Positions 4,314 to 12,473 of a DNA stretch of 64,000 nucleotides are shown here, piece after piece. The DNA is taken from NCBI GenBank assembly GCA_945889005.1, contig CAMDBI010000003.1, forward strand, positions 71,814-135,813, given 5' to 3'. Within the stretch, counting starts at the first letter, position 1. Each line of letters starts with the position of its first letter. Both the position numbers and the translations under genes were made by a program. The notes below the pieces were generated by a model that saw only the letters and a list, made by a program, of their open reading frames with translations, did no database searches and had not been told where the DNA came from. Source of the stretch: Bacteroides fragilis (lineage in GTDB: Bacteria > Bacteroidota > Bacteroidia > Bacteroidales > DTGW01).

Positions 4314-4697
4314 TTGAATAAAAAATTCATGTACAAGCACCTTTTCAAATACACAGTTATTATTATTACCATACTTACAGCCAACTTGTTGACTTCGTGG
4401 ATTTCCGATTACTTCATATCGTACAAAAATCATTATAAGCCACTTACTTTTACATTTGCAGCAATGGGTATTATTGTGGTGGTGTTTTACCCTCTTTTTA
4501 CTAAGATGGAAGAGTTTGTCAATAAACTTTCCAAACACATGATTAAGGGAGGCAAATCGCTAGGTGGAAAGGTGCTGGGTTTGTTTCTGATATTTATTAT
4601 TGCCATTTTGGTACTTACTTATTTTTATTCCCGAATGTGGTACGAAATCGACTTGTTGGTATTGATTTTTAATGGAACAATTTTCGATTATTTTTAA
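4314..4697 (+). CDS. Hypothetical small membrane protein (3 predicted TM helices)
   Basis: ORF with hydrophobic segments. TTG at 4314 or ATG at 4329 are possible starts. No recognisable family. Confidence 0.4.
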   Translation: MNKKFMYKHLFKYTVIIITILTANLLTSWISDYFISYKNHYKPLTFTFAAMGIIVVVFYPLFTKMEEFVNKLSKHMIKGGKSLGGKVLGLFLIFIIAILVLTYFYSRMWYEIDLLVLIFNGTIFDYF

Positions 4698-4750: not shown

Positions 4751-6685
4751 CAAAAAAATCAGCACTATTTGGATAAATACCGTCAAATATTAAGCCAGTA
4801 TTGGGGTTATTCGAAGTTTAGACCTTTGCAAGAGGATATAATACGTTCTGTTGTAGAAGGCAACGATACCCTAGCCCTTATGCCCACCGGAGGAGGTAAG
4901 TCCATTACTTTTCAAGTGCCAGCAATGGCAACTGAGGGAATATGCATTGTAGTTACGCCTCTTATTGCTCTTATGAAAGATCAGGTCGAGAACCTGAAAG
5001 CTCGCCAAATTAAGGCTTTAGCTATATACTCGGGGATGGATCGTGGCGAAATAGATGTAGCACTCGACAATGCTATTTATGGCAATTATAAATTTCTGTA
5101 TTGTTCGCCCGAACGCTTGGCAACCGAGATATTTAGAGCTCGTGTGCAAAAAATGAAAGTTAACCTCATTGCAATAGACGAAGCGCATTGTATTTCGCAG
5201 TGGGGCTACGATTTTAGACCCTCGTATATAAAGATAACCGAGTTTCGACAACTTCTTCCTAATGTACCGATACTGGCATTAACTGCCACGGCAACTTCGG
5301 AAGTGGTCGACGATATTCAAGAAAAATTAAGTTTCAAGAAAAAGAATGTTTTTCGAAAAAGCTTCGAACGAAAAAATATTTCGTACATCGTTCGCGAAGT
5401 AGACGATAAACAGAAATACATGCTCAAAATCTTTCAGACTTCGAAAGGTTCGGGTATTGTATATGTTCGTAATCGTAAGCGTACCAAGGAACTTGCATTG
5501 GTATTGATGCAAAATGGTATTTCGGCCGATTATTACCATGCCGGCCTAAGCGACCACATGCGCCACGAAAAGCAAAACAATTGGAAAACGGGTAAAACAC
5601 GTGTAATAGTTTCGACAAACGCTTTTGGAATGGGCATTGACAAAGCCGATGTGCGAGCAGTTGTACATATCGATTTGCCCGACTCGCTCGAAGCATATTA
5701 CCAGGAAGCGGGTAGGGCTGGGCGCGACGAAAAACAGGCTTATGCCGTATTGTTGTACAATACGAACGACAAATTGTCGATTCATCAACGTATTGCGGTT
5801 AGTTTTCCCGATTTGGCGCTTGTCAAAAAAGTATACAATGCACTAGCCAATTTTTTTCAGATTCCCTATGGTGGTGGTAAGTTTATGTCGTACGATTTCG
5901 ATTTAATTGCATTTATAACCCAATATAAGTTCAATGTTCAAACGGCTTTTAATAGTCTAAAAATATTGGAACAAGAAGGTTATATTTCGGTAACCGATGA
6001 GCTCAATATACCTTCGAAAGTACATTTTTTGGTAAGTCGCGACGATTTATATAAGTTTCAGGTCGAAAATGCCATTTTCGACAGTTTTATTAAGTTGTTG
6101 TTGCGTTCGTACGAGGGCATGTTTAGCGATTACGTGAGTATCGACGAGGGTGTGTTGGCGCGCCGTGCCAATACCAATGTCGATACGGTATATAAATATT
6201 TGCAAAAGCTTTCGAAAACAAATATCCTCAACTACATACCTCGTCGCGAGAAGCCTGTGGTGGTGTATACCGAGGAACGATTAGACGAAAGTTCGATTCG
6301 GTTTTCGTATGCCAATTTTAACTTTCGCAAAGAGCGCTATATTGCTAAGGCCGAGGCTATGCTCGAATATGCATCGAGCCACCACAAATGTCGCAGCCAA
6401 TTGTTGCTAGCCTATTTTGGCGAAGTAGATACTTACCGTTGTGGTCAATGCGATGTTTGCCAGCAACGCAACGAACTTGGATTGAGCAAATACGAATTTG
6501 ATATTATTTCTGAACAATTCAAAAAAGAACTACACGACAAAGCTCAACCGATCGACAAACTAATCGACTCTACACATCAAACACTTAATATTGATACCGA
6601 AAAAATTATTAAGGTATCGCAATGGCTTATCGACAACGAAAAATTAAAAAGCGAAGATGGTGTTTGTTGGGAATGGAAGCATTAG
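4748..6685 (+). CDS. recQ: ATP-dependent DNA helicase, RecQ family
   Basis: Helicase motifs MPTGGGKS, DEAHCISQWGYDFRP and LTATA, plus a Cys cluster (CRSQ..CGQCDVC). The start is uncertain: TTG 4748 lies in the putative -7 box and TTG 4769 is the alternative. Confidence 0.9.
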   Translation: MQKNQHYLDKYRQILSQYWGYSKFRPLQEDIIRSVVEGNDTLALMPTGGGKSITFQVPAMATEGICIVVTPLIALMKDQVENLKARQIKALAIYSGMDRGEIDVALDNAIYGNYKFLYCSPERLATEIFRARVQKMKVNLIAIDEAHCISQWGYDFRPSYIKITEFRQLLPNVPILALTATATSEVVDDIQEKLSFKKKNVFRKSFERKNISYIVREVDDKQKYMLKIFQTSKGSGIVYVRNRKRTKELALVLMQNGISADYYHAGLSDHMRHEKQNNWKTGKTRVIVSTNAFGMGIDKADVRAVVHIDLPDSLEAYYQEAGRAGRDEKQAYAVLLYNTNDKLSIHQRIAVSFPDLALVKKVYNALANFFQIPYGGGKFMSYDFDLIAFITQYKFNVQTAFNSLKILEQEGYISVTDELNIPSKVHFLVSRDDLYKFQVENAIFDSFIKLLLRSYEGMFSDYVSIDEGVLARRANTNVDTVYKYLQKLSKTNILNYIPRREKPVVVYTEERLDESSIRFSYANFNFRKERYIAKAEAMLEYASSHHKCRSQLLLAYFGEVDTYRCGQCDVCQQRNELGLSKYEFDIISEQFKKELHDKAQPIDKLIDSTHQTLNIDTEKIIKVSQWLIDNEKLKSEDGVCWEWKH

Positions 6686-7151
6686 GAGTGCTAAAGTTGG
6701 AAAAATGTTTGGGGCAAGTTTATGACATTTAAAAACGCAGGCTTATGCACTTTGTTAATTGATTTAGACCTTTTGGGGGTTTATCTATACGACATTGTAT
6801 ATTAGGGCATTTCTAAAAACGGCTTTTTAGCTACGCTGAGCCCTTCGGGCTTCTTCGTTGAGCTTCATTTTTAAAATCCTCACTTCGACTTTCATTTAGT
6901 GTAACACATTTACAGTAGTAAACTCCGGGTTTAAAAATTCGTCCGCCTCAAAAAATCGAGTTTTTAGAGACGCTCATTAATTTATGAAAATGAAGGTTAA
7001 AATGGTTTAATATAATTTAAAAAACACACAAATTGCATTAATATACTAGGATTTAATAAGAAATTCATTATTTTTATCGCAAAATATAGCATCAAACAAT
7101 AGTATAACAAAACAATACATGAGTTTGAAGTTGTTTTATAAGAAGGATTGA

Positions 7152-7256
7152 AATAGCGCGATACAACAATTGAACCAAGTTACTCAACAGAATGCTGCTT
7201 CTTCGGAACAAATTGCTGGTAGCACTATAGAACTAGCCCGTAAGGCAGAATTTTAA
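7152..7256 (+). pseudogene. Remnant of the C-terminus of a methyl-accepting chemotaxis protein
   Basis: The 34 codons [34 protein letters not shown]-stop parallel [23 protein letters not shown] of the intact MCP at 14625-16043. A stop lies immediately upstream (7149-7151) and there is no start codon. Confidence 0.7.
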
Positions 7257-7313
7257 AAATAAAGCATTTCTTATTTTAAAAATGTAATAATTTACTTGTT
7301 TTTACTTTTTAGT

Positions 7314-9380
7314 ATGAAAAAACGATTAAAGATTCCTTTTGCTGAAGCCTTGTCAATGCTTCTAAAATATGCATGGTTAAGAGTAAAAGAGCAAATAAAA
7401 TCTGTAGCTTTTATTATATTATATTTAGTTGTTTTTCAAACATTAGTTTTAAATGTACCATTAGCTAATGCCTTAAGCACTAGTTTAGGAATTGCACTTG
7501 TTGTGTTTGGACTTGCTTTTTTTCTCGAAGGTCTTATACTAGGTTTAATGCCTCTAGGAGAGCGTGTTGGAGTTAAAATGCCACAACGAGTAGGAATTAC
7601 CGTAATTGCAATTTTTGGTCTTATTTTAGGATTTGGAGCCACTTTGGCTGAACCAGCAATTAGTGCTTTGCGAACTGCCGGATCTGCTATTACAGCATGG
7701 GATTCGCCTTTGTTATATATGATATTAGAGCCATATTCAAATTGGCTCATTCTTTCTGTTGGAATAGGTGTTGGTTTAGCTGTTGCATTAGGGATGTTTC
7801 GCTTTTATTATAATTGGTCTATTAAACCACTTATTTATATCATAATTCCTACTTTATTAGTCTTATCTATTGTTGCATACTATAATGTCAATTTAAGTAA
7901 AATAATTGGATTGGCTTGGGATTGTGGTGCGGTAACCACTGGGGCTGTAACCGTACCATTGGTTCTTGCTCTTGGTATAGGTGTTTCGCGTTCGTCAAAC
8001 AAAGGGCAAGGATCTAGTGGGGGGTTTGGAATTATTTTATTAGCTTCTGCTTTTCCAATATTAGCTGTTTTAGCGTTAGGAATTATTTTAAACACTTCAG
8101 CTCCGGCTCCTACCGATGAGAAAACTTTTTTTTCAATCGAAAACAGAGAAAATGCACTGCGTGTTTTTTCAAATGAAGAAAAACTTAAGCAACATGCGTT
8201 TACACATGGAAGTGAGGTTGGACGAGAAACTTTCTTTGGTAGTAAGCAAGCGTATAATTCAATTCTATTTTCGTTAAAGAATAATGCTGATTTACATCAA
8301 ACATATTTAGGATCAATAAGCTTATCGGATTGGCTTAAAATGAAGGCATCTGATAGTGAAAGAAAAGTAATTCAAGATAATGGAGATATTGCAAATAAAA
8401 AGACTGATAATTCTTTTGGTAAAGTGATAAAAGAAGAATCTATTGCCGGAATTAGGGCAGTTATACCTCTTTCATTATTGTTATTGATAGTATTGGTGCT
8501 ATTTCTAAAAGAAAAAATAAGATTTAAAGACGAAGTTGCCATTGGAATAGTTTTTACGCTGCTTGGGATGATACTACTAACTTCTGGTATTCGATTAGGT
8601 CTTGCTTCACTAGGTGGAGAAGTTGGAGGCGAATTGCCAAGAGCGTTTGCAAAAGATGATAAATTTATTGACCGAGTTATAATAAATAACTTCGACACTA
8701 CTCTGTTATTTCAAGGAATTTCTAAGGATGGATCAACCAAAACTTATTTTAATTTGATTGGCGAAAACGATCAATTAACTAAAGTAGAATTTAAATATGA
8801 CAATTTTAATAATAATACTAAACAATATGAACATATACTTACCCAAGCCCCTTTGTTTGGTAAGCAACTTACGATACTAGGCTTACTTTTGGTTTTAATC
8901 TTTGCCTTTGGAATGGGTTTTGGAGCAACTTTGGCCGAACCTGCTTTAAATGCACTTGGTTTGACTGTCGAAAATTTGACTGTAGGTACTATTAAGCAAA
9001 AACAAATTGTTAATATTGTTTCGTTGGGGGTTGGTATAGGTTGTACGCTTGGGTTTGCTCGTATTTTATTCGATTTACCTCTAATTTGGCTTATTGTAGT
9101 CCCGTATATTCTTTTAATTATTCTTTCAATTTTTAGTGAGGAAGAATATACTGCTATGGCATGGGATAGTGGGGGAGTTACTACAGGTCCTGTTACTGTA
9201 CCTCTTGTATTAGCTATGGGCTTGAGTATTGGCGGTGCTTTAAATATGGCCGATGGTTTTGGCGTTTTAGCTTTGGCTTCAGCATTTCCAATTATTACAG
9301 TGCTAGGATTCGGATTGTACAAAAATGCTAAGCAAAAACGTTCAATTGACAACAAACAAACAGAAGAAAAACATGGATAG
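7314..9380 (+). CDS. Fused tandem DUF1538 integral membrane protein
   Basis: There are two homologous halves. Each carries GATLAEPA(I/L)(S/N)AL and WD(C/S)G(A/G)VTTG(A/P)VTVPLVLA(L/M)G motifs typical of DUF1538, joined by a soluble linker of about 100 aa. ATG 7314 (MKKRLK) is preferred to TTG 7296. Confidence 0.75.
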   Translation: MKKRLKIPFAEALSMLLKYAWLRVKEQIKSVAFIILYLVVFQTLVLNVPLANALSTSLGIALVVFGLAFFLEGLILGLMPLGERVGVKMPQRVGITVIAIFGLILGFGATLAEPAISALRTAGSAITAWDSPLLYMILEPYSNWLILSVGIGVGLAVALGMFRFYYNWSIKPLIYIIIPTLLVLSIVAYYNVNLSKIIGLAWDCGAVTTGAVTVPLVLALGIGVSRSSNKGQGSSGGFGIILLASAFPILAVLALGIILNTSAPAPTDEKTFFSIENRENALRVFSNEEKLKQHAFTHGSEVGRETFFGSKQAYNSILFSLKNNADLHQTYLGSISLSDWLKMKASDSERKVIQDNGDIANKKTDNSFGKVIKEESIAGIRAVIPLSLLLLIVLVLFLKEKIRFKDEVAIGIVFTLLGMILLTSGIRLGLASLGGEVGGELPRAFAKDDKFIDRVIINNFDTTLLFQGISKDGSTKTYFNLIGENDQLTKVEFKYDNFNNNTKQYEHILTQAPLFGKQLTILGLLLVLIFAFGMGFGATLAEPALNALGLTVENLTVGTIKQKQIVNIVSLGVGIGCTLGFARILFDLPLIWLIVVPYILLIILSIFSEEEYTAMAWDSGGVTTGPVTVPLVLAMGLSIGGALNMADGFGVLALASAFPIITVLGFGLYKNAKQKRSIDNKQTEEKHG

Positions 9381-10578
9381 CGAATTGGTTAAACCCATTA
9401 AAGAAAAAGTTTTTTCTCCTTCTCGCACTGTTTGGAGAACACAAATGGGGAAAGGCGTTTACACTCCGCATAGGGTTAGTCGTATTACTTGTATTGTAAA
9501 TCAATTGTTAGCAAATAATGTTATTGATTTTTTGAAAAAAATAGAAGTTGTAGTTTACGATGAAACCGCTAGGGTTGTTAGAGAACAAATTAGGAAACGT
9601 AAATTTGGTTTGCCTGGCGAAATTAATACCCTCGAAAGTACTTCAGTTAGAATTTTCAGATTCTCTATTCCAAGAGAAAACGCAGCATTAATTACAAAAA
9701 TATTGATAGATATTGCTGAATTACACATACCTGGTAGAGGTTCAATTTTTTCGCAGGAATTAATGGAATTCTCAAATGAACCTCCAAAATTTAATGCCAG
9801 CTTTTTAAGCACCTATTCGTCTGTCAATTACAATTATAACTTGTTAAATAATTTGTCGTATGTTATTTGTGTGCTTTCAGACCCGGGAAGTGGTGAACAA
9901 ATTGCAAAAATTGCACTCGAATTGGGAATTTGTGTTCCATTAATAACATTTGGCACTGGAAACGATATTAGAGATCAGTTAGGTTTGATTCGAATAACAA
10001 TTCCGGCAGAAAAAGAAATTGTTCATTTAGTTATGCCCGAGCAAGATTCCGATAGTATTATTAAACTATTGGTCGAGCACGGTAGACTCGACAAACCCGG
10101 GAAAGGTTTTATTTATCAAACGCCTGTTTCTATCGGTATGATTGATACCAGAATGAAAATTGGAAAACAAAAATATGCAGCAAGTATGGAACAAATTATT
10201 GCAGCCATAGACCAATTAAAATCCGATACAACATGGCGTAAACGTTTAGATGCGAACTCAGATAATTCGAAAATTGGAAAATCAATGATGCCACAAGACA
10301 ATTGCGAAGTTTCAATTATATCCGATGAAGATAGGATTGACGTTTTGAGAGAAACTTGTTTAGAGGTAGGAGCATCGGGAGCAATAACTTCAAAAGTAAT
10401 TCCCATTTCTTGTATTGACGGTGCACATACAACCATGATAAGAAGTGCTATTAGTGTACCTGCTCAAATTACCGATATAGTGGTCGACAAGTTGCTGAAT
10501 GCCAGTACTATAAAAACCGAAAACGTGGATCGAATTCAAGTTCTCGACTCTCCCGCTGCTTATGTTCGATCGTTATAA
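9373..10578 (+). CDS. Multi-domain P-II-like (GlnB-fold) protein, probable partner of the DUF1538 protein
   Basis: Three consecutive segments of about 100-120 aa have a beta-alpha-beta...beta-alpha-beta pattern. The first two end in GRGSIFSQEL and GKGFIYQTPV, which resemble the P-II GDGKIFV motif. ATG 9373 overlaps the upstream stop (ATGGATAG). Confidence 0.55.
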   Translation: MDSELVKPIKEKVFSPSRTVWRTQMGKGVYTPHRVSRITCIVNQLLANNVIDFLKKIEVVVYDETARVVREQIRKRKFGLPGEINTLESTSVRIFRFSIPRENAALITKILIDIAELHIPGRGSIFSQELMEFSNEPPKFNASFLSTYSSVNYNYNLLNNLSYVICVLSDPGSGEQIAKIALELGICVPLITFGTGNDIRDQLGLIRITIPAEKEIVHLVMPEQDSDSIIKLLVEHGRLDKPGKGFIYQTPVSIGMIDTRMKIGKQKYAASMEQIIAAIDQLKSDTTWRKRLDANSDNSKIGKSMMPQDNCEVSIISDEDRIDVLRETCLEVGASGAITSKVIPISCIDGAHTTMIRSAISVPAQITDIVVDKLLNASTIKTENVDRIQVLDSPAAYVRSL

Positions 10579-10616
10579 AAAATAGTTGCTCTAAATTCAT
10601 TGGGTGTTACGGTACT

Positions 10617-10975
10617 AAAATAACCCTTGTTGCTATAGCACTTATTATAGGTTTTTCAAATATGCAGGCTCAGGGGGGTTGAAAGTATAAGCCAATGGAC
10701 TAATGGAGCCACCAAAGCTAAAGTGGCAGGAATTGGACTTTCTAAAAAATTCTGTATCAAACAATTATGTTTATCCAAACCCTGTTGAAGACGTACTTAT
10801 GGTTAAAGGCGCAAATATTAGTTCAGTTACAATATTTGATGCATTGGGTTTACAAGTGTTGAAAACTGATGGCAAGGCTGCAGAAGGTATCAATGTTTCG
10901 GGATTAAAATCAGGCATGTATATGGTTAATGTTACGTCTAATAAGGGTACAACTACTACTACAGTAATTAAAAAA
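10617..10975 (+). pseudogene. Collapsed T9SS cargo gene: signal-peptide remnant plus C-terminal sorting domain only
   Basis: 10617-10679 encodes KITLVAIALIIGFSNMQAQG followed by a stop, with no ATG. In another frame, 10703-10975 encodes a typical T9SS CTD (YPNPVEDVLMV...SSVTIFDALGLQV...SGMYMVNVTS...TVIKK). No mature domain lies between them. Confidence 0.65.
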
Positions 10976-11349
10976 ATAATTATTTTTGGTAAGAACTTAA
11001 ATCGGGTAGACAGATTCATGAAATTAAGAAAAATCTGACACATTCTGAGCTTTTCATTCAGAATCTGACAGCTTATTTCAGAACTCAATGCCGTGAAGGA
11101 CGAATTTAGAGAGTATTTGCCTAAAGTCAATATGCCTGTAAAGAAATCGAATAAAAATTGAGGTAGCGATAATAAGAATAATAACCAAAATATAGTAGGT
11201 CAGATACTTAATGGCAATTTGTTTTATGAGATTTAAATAGAATATCACCAAATAATATATATAAATAATTTAATTACATGTATTTATATATAATTTTATA
11301 AATAATATATAAAAAAGAATTTTAATTTTTATTTAATCTAAATAGTTTA

Positions 11350-11357
11350 TAAATTTG
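11350..11357 (+). promoter_or_regulatory. Candidate -7 box (TAAATTTG) for the cys leader / cysK transcript
   Basis: Matches TAnnTTTG, 18 nt upstream of the leader ATG. Confidence 0.4.
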
Positions 11358-11374
11358 TAAAAAACAAAATCACG

Positions 11375-11458
11375 ATGACTTTAAATTTGAACATATCATG
11401 CTGCTGTTGTTGTAATGTGAGCCACAAAAATGGAAGCAATGATTGTGTGAAAATGTAA
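11375..11458 (+). CDS. Cys-rich leader peptide (27 aa) upstream of cysK
   Basis: MTLNLNISCCCCCNVSHKNGSNDCVKM. Five consecutive Cys codons (TGC TGC TGT TGT TGT) lie at 11399-11413. Confidence 0.6.
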   Translation: MTLNLNISCCCCCNVSHKNGSNDCVKM

Positions 11459-11485
11459 TATTTTTTACCCACTCAATATAATCGA

Positions 11486-11513
11486 GCCCTTCCATAAGAA
11501 GGGCTTTTTTTTT
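11486..11513 (+). terminator. Intrinsic terminator / attenuator between the leader peptide and cysK
   Basis: GCCCTTC-CATAA-GAAGGGC followed by T9, 45 nt upstream of the cysK ATG. Confidence 0.7.
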
Positions 11514-11558
11514 ACCAAAAAAGAAAAAAAATAAATATAAATTCAAAAATTAAGCAAT

Positions 11559-12473
11559 ATGAAAGTAAACAACATTCTCCAAACCATCGGAAATACACCG
11601 CATGTAAAGATCAACAAACTCTATTCGTCCGATTATGAAGTATGGGTTAAATTGGAAAAAGCCAATCCTGGTTCAAGTATCAAAGACCGTATAGCCCTTT
11701 CGATGGTCGAAGATGCCGAAAAGAAAGGAATATTGAAACCCGGAAGTGTCATTATAGAGCCAACCTCGGGCAATACAGGTATAGGATTAGCCATGGTAGC
11801 AGCCGTTAAAGGCTATAAGCTTATATTGGTTATGCCCGAGTCGATGAGTATTGAACGTCGCCGATTGATGTCGATCTATGGTGCACAATTTGAACTTACT
11901 CCTCGCGAAAAAGGTATGAAAGGTGCCATTGAAAAAGCAAACGAATTGGCACAAGCTACTACAAACTCTTGGATTCCGCAGCAGTTCAATAACGAAGCAA
12001 ATATTGCTATACACAAAACAACAACAGCACAAGAAATAATAAAGGACTTCCCCGAAGGTTTAGATTATTTAATAACCGGTGTTGGAACTGGTGGGCACAT
12101 AACAGGAGTAGGTGAGGTATTGAAAGAAAAATGGCCAAATCTAAAGGTTTTTGCAGTAGAACCTGCTTTGTCGCCTGTTATTAGTGGTGGACAACCCGGC
12201 CCACACCCTATTCAAGGTATTGGTGCTGGTTTTGTACCCAACAACCTACACACAGCGGTTCTCGATGGAGTTATTCAAATTAGTAAAGAAGAAGCATTTG
12301 AGTATGCCAATCGTATAGCGCGCGAAGAAGGTATTTTGGTTGGTATTTCTACCGGTGCTTCGTTGGCTGCAGTAGCAAAGAAATTGACCGAAATCCCAAA
12401 AGGTAGTCGTGTGCTCACTTTCAACTACGACACCGGCGAACGTTATTTAAGCATCGAAGGTTTGTTTGCTTAG
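11559..12473 (+). CDS. cysK: Cysteine synthase A (O-acetylserine sulfhydrylase)
   Basis: 304 aa. PLP-enzyme motifs [24 protein letters not shown] and [10 protein letters not shown]. Confidence 0.93.

Follow-up and report, generated by a model that had tools for sequence, protein, structure and literature searches.

We found that two overlapping genes in a 64,000-nucleotide (nt) stretch of contig CAMDBI010000003.1 of Bacteroides fragilis (assembly GCA_945889005.1; the whole stretch is called the window, and all coordinates refer to it) encode a 688-amino-acid (aa) membrane protein composed of two fused DUF1538 units and a 401-aa protein with three P-II-like modules. In our preferred reading, to which we assign a probability of about one half, the first protein is an antiporter that exchanges cations for protons, and the second an asymmetric P-II protein that gates it 1:1 as a single chain. 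This reading is based on the domain architecture, on homology to DUF1538 proteins (including the UmpAB antiporter) and to P-II proteins, on the strict linkage of the two genes and the conserved overlap between them, and on a reversed charge bias between the two halves of the membrane protein. A P-II-gated transporter had already been proposed in a preliminary description of this DNA, and it remains the best reading of the pair.

The first gene (7314–9380, plus strand) was recognized from the list of open reading frames (ORFs), Pfam and NCBIfam matches and homologues. It begins with ATG at 7314 and ends with TAG at 9378–9380. More than 100 full-length homologues are 62–85% identical to its product, and their consensus N terminus, MxKxKKIPF, backs this start; a TTG at 7296 was rejected as a start because no homologue supported it. 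The Pfam DUF1538 model (PF07556) matched the protein in two stretches with 348.8 bits (E = 1.1e-104), exceeding the gathering threshold of 22.6 bits, and the two halves aligned with each other at 36% identity (E = 1e-25). The two DUF1538 units are homologous and are fused in one chain, as the preliminary description had stated. Hydropathy analysis showed 7+7 hydrophobic segments, seven in unit A (residues 1–262; 7314–8099, plus strand) and seven in unit B (residues 373–688; 8430–9377, plus strand). Both units carry the motif AWDxGxVTTGxVTVPLVLA, whose WDxGxVTTGxVTVP signature had been noted before; it reads AWDCGAVTTGAVTVPLVLA in unit A (residues 201–219; 7914–7970, plus strand) and AWDSGGVTTGPVTVPLVLA in unit B (residues 616–634; 9159–9215, plus strand). 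This motif and a GATLAEPA motif located N-terminal to it in each half formed invariant alignment columns in 35 homologues. Each unit has a Glu in the AEP motif and an Asp in the WD...TTG motif (E113 and D203 in unit A, E542 and D618 in unit B), which lie within hydrophobic segments, are predicted to be membrane-embedded and are conserved universally, including in the split and compact relatives described below.

Two further domains separate and interrupt the units, and both had been reported previously as a soluble linker of about 100 aa and an extra insertion of about 80 aa. The linker (residues ~263–372; 8100–8429, plus strand) is ~110 aa long, hydrophilic and net acidic, and AlphaFold2 (AF2) modelled it as an all-helical domain, a bundle of short helices at residues 269–352. 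It is kept across phyla, with tblastn alignments passing through it at ~50% identity. The insertion (residues ~440–515; 8631–8858, plus strand) is located in loop 2'–3' of unit B, comprises ~76 aa, is net acidic and was predicted to form a five-strand beta domain (strands at 450–511); in alignments it is missing from the split and compact relatives. Searches of Pfam and the PDB gave no significant match for either the linker or the insertion. The AF2 model of the entire protein had a predicted local distance difference test (pLDDT) score of 74 and a predicted template modelling (pTM) score of 0.74, and a direct search of the 688-aa sequence against the PDB returned no match.

The content of lysine plus arginine (K+R) in equivalent loops, averaged over 35 homologues, was reversed between the two units. 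In unit A, the N terminus was basic (5.6 K+R), as were loops 2–3, 4–5 and 6–7 (2.0–2.5 each), and loop 1–2 was uncharged. In unit B, loop 1'–2' was basic (3.0 K+R), loops 4'–5' and 6'–7' were free of K and R, and the C-terminal tail was basic (4.2). Split pairs of proteobacteria and compact fusions of clostridia showed the same contrast. Taken with the positive-inside rule, this charge bias indicates that units A and B are antiparallel and form a 7+7 inverted repeat with both termini predicted to be cytoplasmic: unit A, also aligned to split A-type proteins, would be oriented N-in/C-out, and unit B N-out/C-in. Because the units are predicted to be antiparallel, the linker and the unit B insertion would both be periplasmic, and hence beyond the reach of a cytoplasmic P-II protein. 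The earlier view of the membrane protein as pseudo-dimeric holds with regard to its two homologous units, and is amended here by their antiparallel arrangement and the predicted periplasmic location of the extra domains.

DUF1538 proteins had been described as uncharacterized, which no longer holds entirely: UmpAB of Halomonas zhaodongensis is the sole characterized DUF1538 system. Its two subunits, each of ~250–270 aa with seven segments, co-immunoprecipitate and form a heterodimer; UmpA and UmpB only jointly give E. coli KNabc salt and alkali tolerance and, in everted vesicles, an Na+(Li+,K+)/H+ antiport activity that depends on pH (PMC5484666). Among NCBIfam models, the N-terminal half of the 688-aa protein was nearest to UmpA (205.8 bits, E = 6e-61) and the C-terminal half to UmpB (152.8 bits, E = 1e-44, covering residues 525–677). 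The window protein and UmpAB belong to the same Pfam family, are built as 7+7 from two homologous units, and have in common an extended loop 3–4 in UmpA and unit A and an insertion in loop 2–3 of UmpB and unit B. They differ in that UmpA (~254 aa) and UmpB (~271 aa) are separate proteins whereas the window units are fused in one chain, in that the window protein has the helical domain of 110 aa as its linker and a beta insertion of far greater size, and in that the UmpAB study included no P-II partner. By its sequence, the 688-aa protein is classed as a UmpAB relative and not as an equivalog, although despite the fusion it might function in the same way as UmpAB. Judging from this homology, exchange of monovalent cations (Na+/K+/Li+) for protons is the most likely activity of the window transporter.

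Some additional observations bear on this assignment. In 9 distinct genomes from Bacteroidales and Cytophagales (loci L003, L025, L028, L058, L061, L064, L070, L074 and L076), the gene for a 489-aa CPA1-type Na_H_Exchanger that includes a TrkA_C domain precedes the pair by ~120 nt in the same orientation; the window does not contain this exchanger gene. Such a neighbor may be a sign that both take part in cation/proton homeostasis. Besides, a machine-learning study listed DUF1538 as one of the 20 Pfam families that best predict optimal growth pH (PMC13255231). The conserved Glu and Asp residues, the CPA1 neighbor and the growth-pH ranking weakly support a role in cation or pH homeostasis.

The second gene of the pair (9373–10578, plus strand) encodes the 401-aa protein, as defined by homologues, sequence clusters and an AF2 model. 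We identified 346 homologues, the top 120 of which are ~401 aa in length. An ATG at 9325, which would give a 417-aa protein, was rejected as the start, since more than 100 homologues of ~401 aa fit a start at 9373. This ATG lies within the last codons of the transporter gene, where the junction reads CAT GGA TAG, and the two genes overlap by 8 nt (ATGGATAG; 9373–9380, plus strand). In related loci, the 8-nt ATGnnTAR overlap occurred at 75 of ~110 distinct junctions, and 15 more had an 11-nt overlap. The preliminary description had placed the second gene start inside the stop region and taken the genes to be translationally coupled. The first part was confirmed, and the overlap is conserved; as for the second, the overlap implies that the genes may be coupled, and the two probably constitute a self-contained, translationally coupled module.

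In the AF2 model of the 401-aa protein (pLDDT 70.7, pTM 0.76, from a 29-sequence alignment), an N-terminal helix is followed by three beta-alpha-beta-beta-alpha-beta modules: module 1 at residues 33–133 (9469–9771), module 2 at 158–256 (9844–10140) and module 3 at 308–397 (10294–10563), all on the plus strand. Profiles were made for the modules from sub-alignments of 49 diverse family members. In hhalign comparisons they were related to one another (probabilities: modules 1 and 2, 97.9, E = 4e-13; modules 2 and 3, 95.8, E = 7e-9; modules 1 and 3, 73, E = 3e-5), and against all PDB sequences canonical P-II proteins were the top and almost exclusive matches of all three: P-II over its full length for module 1 (E = 1.2e-4), GlnK1 for module 2 (E = 2.1e-4) and P-II for module 3 (E = 8.7e-4). 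Foldseek searches with the 401-aa model retrieved P-II structures with a probability of 1.00 and template modelling (TM) scores of 0.6–0.69, and a direct search of the 401-aa sequence against the PDB gave only marginal P-II matches. An assignment of the modules to ACT domains, raised by Foldseek matches to aspartate kinase regulatory subunits, was rejected because the profiles matched P-II specifically and P-II structures had higher TM scores. On the strength of the model and the profiles, the 401-aa protein is placed in the P-II superfamily at the fold level, with three ferredoxin-like modules in tandem.

The canonical P-II B-loop has the signature T-G-x-x-G-D-G-K-I-F, which includes an ATP-contacting Lys. 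Modules 1 and 2 keep only its G-x-G-x-I-[FY] core, as GRGSIF at 121–126 (within PGRGSIF) and GKGFIY at 243–248 (within PGKGFIY). Module 3 is devoid of the B-loop motif and keeps GAxGAT at the start of beta2, a P-II-like turn with near-invariant G333 and G336. The count of modules given in the preliminary description, with GxGxIF/Y in two and a degenerate third, agrees with these results. Module 2 is the most conserved of the three. Its T-loop-like segment of 21 residues (194–214, GTGNDIRDQLGLIRITIPAEK; 9952–10014, plus strand) is near-invariant, with the consensus GTGxRDxLGLLRITIPxEK and invariant R200, G204 and K214, and at 196–211 its pLDDT was below 50, i.e., it was modelled as disordered like typical T-loops. 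Module 1 has a hairpin of similar length, and the loop of module 3 is short and variable. As judged by sequence, the conserved T-loop that all DUF1538-linked P-II proteins have in common is retained in module 2 only. Residues invariant throughout the family (P189, R200, G204, K214, G245, A270, Q274, D280, W288 and R289) concentrate in the module 2 loop and in the helix that follows module 2; other invariant sites occur in the B-loops of modules 1 and 2 and the beta2 turn of module 3. This post-module-2 segment (residues 257–307, including AASMEQIIAAIDQLKSDTTWRKR; 10141–10293, plus strand) has AF2 helices at 272–304 and the consensus AASxEQIIAAIDxLK..T.WR.R. Neither it nor the N-terminal extension of the protein had a significant Pfam or PDB match. 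Residues 1–32 (9373–9468) contain, in Bacteroidota members, a strongly conserved FSPSRTVWRTQMxKGxYTPHR with a predicted helix at 16–27; members outside Bacteroidota begin near residue 23–35 and do not have the extension.

With regard to the arrangement of the modules, the pTM of 0.76 indicates a confident mutual placement in the model and a compact assembly, and a single-chain pseudo-trimer of the three modules is plausible. PDB entry 9p1x (chains G/H) contains two P-II family nitrogen regulatory proteins of 125 aa (six copies) and 105 aa (twelve copies), a 1:2 ratio. It may represent a heteromeric P-II assembly, and could then serve as a structural precedent for P-II modules that are not equivalent.

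When 1.84 billion cluster representatives were searched with a profile of the triple-P-II protein, 498 clusters (50% identity) were retrieved, 199 of them at E ≤ 1e-30; nearly all were 365–400 aa in length and aligned over the full length. Relatives were present in 111 species-level genomes in one genome scan and in 208 in another, the two sets overlapping. The pair occurs in Bacteroidales, Cytophagales, Kiritimatiellota, Lentisphaerota and other bacteria of the Planctomycetes-Verrucomicrobia-Chlamydiae (PVC) group, Spirochaetota, Riflebacteria/Ozemobacteraceae, Hydrogenedentota, Delongbacteria and others, i.e., in hundreds of species and at least eight phyla, among them bacteria of rumen, digesters, sediments and saline lakes. 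Far from being special to the window genome, the fusion is how this large family, which spans many phyla, is normally built. A full-length fused ~688-aa DUF1538 gene was located directly upstream in 78 of 80 loci in the first scan and in the first 50 loci inspected in the second, and no exception was seen among inspected loci that include the upstream DNA. The upstream fused proteins were 43–85% identical and aligned through both the linker and the insertion.

The association of DUF1538 genes with P-II genes, which the preliminary description had given as the normal case, extends beyond this family. A P-II family nitrogen regulator gene directly followed the DUF1538 gene(s) in all five annotated plasmid or chromid loci inspected, and three genome scans agreed that P-II genes follow DUF1538 genes in all of three architecture classes. 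In the first, found in 117 species, mostly Alpha- and Gammaproteobacteria, split A and B proteins of ~220–250 aa each accompany a single P-II protein of ~110–120 aa. In the second, found in 267 species, mostly Bacillota and also Thermotogota, a compact A-B fusion of ~497 aa without periplasmic domains accompanies a two-module P-II protein of ~222 aa, and 72 of 73 complete loci had this arrangement. In the third, to which the window belongs, the long fusion of ~688 aa with periplasmic domains accompanies the three-module protein of ~375–401 aa (111 and 208 species in the overlapping sets mentioned above). The number of P-II modules tracks the transporter architecture: split with single, compact with double, and long with triple. 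The genes for two-module proteins (for example, L154 5469–6137, L156 5466–6134, L158 4491–5165, and L159–L238) also overlap the compact DUF1538 gene; a trimer of tandems is one possibility for their assembly.

Comparison of the single and double proteins with the window protein is informative about the individual modules. In Methylocystis (WP_124740562.1, 122 aa) and Peptoclostridium (WP_025436965.1, 222 aa), such genes have the same position as in the window, directly downstream of the DUF1538 gene(s) and overlapping them; the proteins match window module 2 best (E = 1e-8 to 1e-10) and, like module 2, have I-x-P-E-K-E-I-V as a motif where the T-loop ends and beta3 follows. On the other hand, they have neither the post-module-2 helix (AASxEQIIAAIDxLK...WR) nor module 3, and their partners are split or compact (~497-aa) transporters without periplasmic domains. 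Because the single and double proteins match module 2 best and have its T-loop-end motif in common, we infer that module 2 is the ancestral, target-contacting P-II unit of the system.

The two folded domains predicted to be extracytoplasmic, conserved in the long-fusion class, raise a different possibility, in which the membrane protein is mainly a sensor (transceptor) whose periplasmic domains detect an external cue and whose P-II-like partner carries the output to other targets. Canonical P-II proteins have many targets, which also fits such a role. However, clustering of flanking ORFs over ~150 loci revealed no conserved third gene that could be an output partner nearby, the compact and split classes keep the P-II partner in the absence of periplasmic domains, and the transport-type motifs are invariant. 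A sensor is accordingly very improbable.

Precedents for gating are provided by GlnK-AmtB and SbtB-SbtA, in which P-II or P-II-like proteins gate transporters through their T-loops. Like these, the window pair has the gene for a P-II-fold protein adjoining that for the transporter, and its regulator keeps a GxG B-loop remnant; the flexible conserved T-loop of module 2 is the likely contact element, and ligand-dependent plugging of the cytoplasmic face the likely logic. The differences concern symmetry above all. AmtB and SbtA form homotrimers and engage symmetric P-II homotrimers in a 3:3 ratio, whereas the window transporter appears to be an asymmetric inverted repeat in one chain; its regulator, in contrast to GlnK and SbtB, is also one chain, with three non-equivalent modules and a conserved T-loop in one of them only. 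In addition, the AmtB and SbtA families are unrelated to DUF1538, and the canonical ATP-contacting Lys is not conserved in the window regulator.

Our preferred reading combines these features in the following mechanism. Two opposed 7-helix DUF1538 units would form a 14-helix secondary transporter, with the two extra folded domains facing the periplasm. On the cytoplasmic side, the three fused P-II-like domains of the regulator probably pack like a P-II trimer, and one such pseudo-trimer would dock on one transporter. The single functional T-loop, that of module 2, would enter the cytoplasmic face and block or release transport. Docking may be controlled by a small ligand, probably an adenine nucleotide or a related metabolite, bound in a cleft between modules; the invariant residues suggest the cleft between modules 2 and 3. 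The regulator would then be a symmetry-broken single-chain pseudo-trimer with one working T-loop and one ligand cleft, the remaining modules acting as scaffold, which allows 1:1 regulation. We put this description of the regulator forward tentatively, its chances being somewhat short of even.

Several points weigh against the preferred reading, some of them concerning the transporter and others the regulator. First, the models of a characterized transporter family do match both halves of the 688-aa protein, which goes part of the way towards a refuting condition named in the preliminary description, but with scores that fall far short of the equivalog cut-offs (490 bits for UmpA, NF041627, and 500 bits for UmpB, NF041628), and the substrate therefore cannot be transferred with confidence. 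The UmpAB assignment itself is based on heterologous assays from one laboratory, and UmpAB was active in E. coli without a P-II partner (PMC5484666). Moreover, Foldseek searches of the PDB with the transporter model produced only non-specific helical-bundle alignments (TM ≤ 0.2); no solved structure resembles it, and the transport mechanism is therefore without structural precedent. These low scores, together with 25–35% identity to the split relatives, would also be expected if architecture and regulatory logic were as proposed and the substrate were another one, such as bicarbonate, ammonium, a different anion or a metabolite, with the P-II protein reporting carbon, nitrogen or energy status. 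The well-studied transporter-linked P-II proteins all regulate uptake of nitrogen or inorganic carbon and not cation antiport, the family-specific periplasmic domains could bind a substrate that UmpAB does not encounter, and, record titles place the family in numerous habitats that are not saline, among them rumen and anaerobic digesters. Nevertheless, cation/proton antiport is the sole experimental datum for the family. The window protein is nearer to the UmpA and UmpB models (206 and 153 bits) than the split proteobacterial relatives are (78–111 bits) and has the loop extensions of UmpA and UmpB type; the universally conserved Glu and Asp within the membrane are in line with cation/H+ coupling, and the correlation of DUF1538 with growth pH points the same way. 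We consider another substrate unlikely, although it is the most serious of the alternatives.

As to the regulator, the match of the window 401-aa protein to the Pfam P-II model (PF00543) was 15.7 bits (E = 0.02), compared with a gathering threshold of 25 bits; on the supporting side, 10 of the 49 family members matched this model at E ≤ 0.01 (best, 5.4e-6). The ATP-contacting Lys of GDGK is replaced in both B-loops (GRGS in module 1, GKGF in module 2), and nucleotide binding is therefore not assured. In addition, relatives in Bacillota work with only two P-II modules, from which it follows that a closed ring of three modules is no requirement of the transporter core. Such observations could also be explained if the 401-aa protein were an obligate cytoplasmic subunit or scaffold, comparable to the TrkA/KtrA accessory subunits, whose modules bind an asymmetric face singly and form no trimer. 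Strict gene pairing and overlap suggest a fixed stoichiometry, the module number (one, two or three) co-varies with transporter architecture, a two-module protein cannot alone close a trimer, canonical ATP-binding residues are kept only in part, and Foldseek also returned the ACT-domain regulatory subunits, at lower TM. In contrast, UmpAB alone sufficed for antiport in E. coli, all three module profiles single out P-II from ACT and the other ferredoxin-like families, the protein still has GxG remnants of the B-loop and Arg/Lys where the T-loop begins and ends, and the pTM of the model indicates a compact assembly. An obligate subunit of this kind is in our view a doubtful explanation, and gating by a P-II pseudo-trimer is preferred.

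The genes around the pair in the window are unrelated to it. Upstream are a RecQ-type helicase gene and then a 628-nt gap. Downstream are an orphan type-IX secretion sorting domain, a gene for a PALP-family pyridoxal-phosphate-dependent enzyme, which we take to be a cysteine synthase, and, on the other strand, a large helix-hairpin-helix protein. Synteny of the flanks in other genomes was lineage-specific only (AddB-like nuclease, radical SAM, ribH, recF). An Rfam scan of 6000–12000 (E ≤ 1) for riboswitch or leader RNAs gave nothing credible, sigma-70-like sites were no more common than in shuffled sequence, and no Bacteroidetes-type TAnnTTTG box was present between 6686 and 7313. The sole strong terminator-like hairpin was at 11484–11506, well downstream of the pair. 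Thus neither a convincing promoter nor a terminator was found to bound the pair. Three short frames on the plus strand were also observed. One of them (7149–7256), in the 628-nt gap, has no gene body in front and encodes what we take to resemble the C-terminal end of the signalling domain of a methyl-accepting chemotaxis protein, and probably represents what is left of a gene. Another (10703–11038) starts 124 nt past the P-II-like gene and encodes 111 aa consisting almost only of Por_Secre_tail (E = 9e-15) with no cargo domain, and may be a truncated gene. The third (4314–4697), between a peroxiredoxin-like gene and the RecQ-type helicase gene, encodes 127 aa with hydrophobic segments and no Pfam match.

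Proteins of the 401-aa type are annotated publicly as 'hypothetical protein' or, by the Joint Genome Institute (JGI), as 'nitrogen regulatory protein PII'. A full-text literature search on DUF1538, PF07556, UmpAB and tandem or pseudo-trimeric P-II proteins retrieved the UmpAB paper and incidental mentions only, with nothing on P-II partners of DUF1538, on fused forms, or on a covalently fused, differentiated three-module P-II protein. To our knowledge, the P-II proteins studied so far are symmetric homotrimers, occasionally heteromers of separate chains. It is known already that a P-II-like regulator can be encoded beside its transporter; what is new here is a single-chain regulator with differentiated modules, a target whose predicted architecture is that of an asymmetric inverted repeat, and a transporter fold that is structurally uncharacterized.

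Few signalling proteins are as widespread as those of the P-II type, and the partner transporter family has a single characterized member and no solved structure. If the pseudo-trimer is true, it would constitute a natural experiment on which T-loops and ligand sites are needed for target control, and would reveal in what way a regulator of threefold symmetry can be fitted to a transporter without it. The co-variation of module number with transporter architecture is a testable evolutionary series, and the single, double and triple P-II proteins would then record the stepwise remodelling of a symmetric trimer for an asymmetric target. Since the pair is present in hundreds of species of at least eight phyla, its function would bear on the way in which many anaerobes control their ion content and pH.

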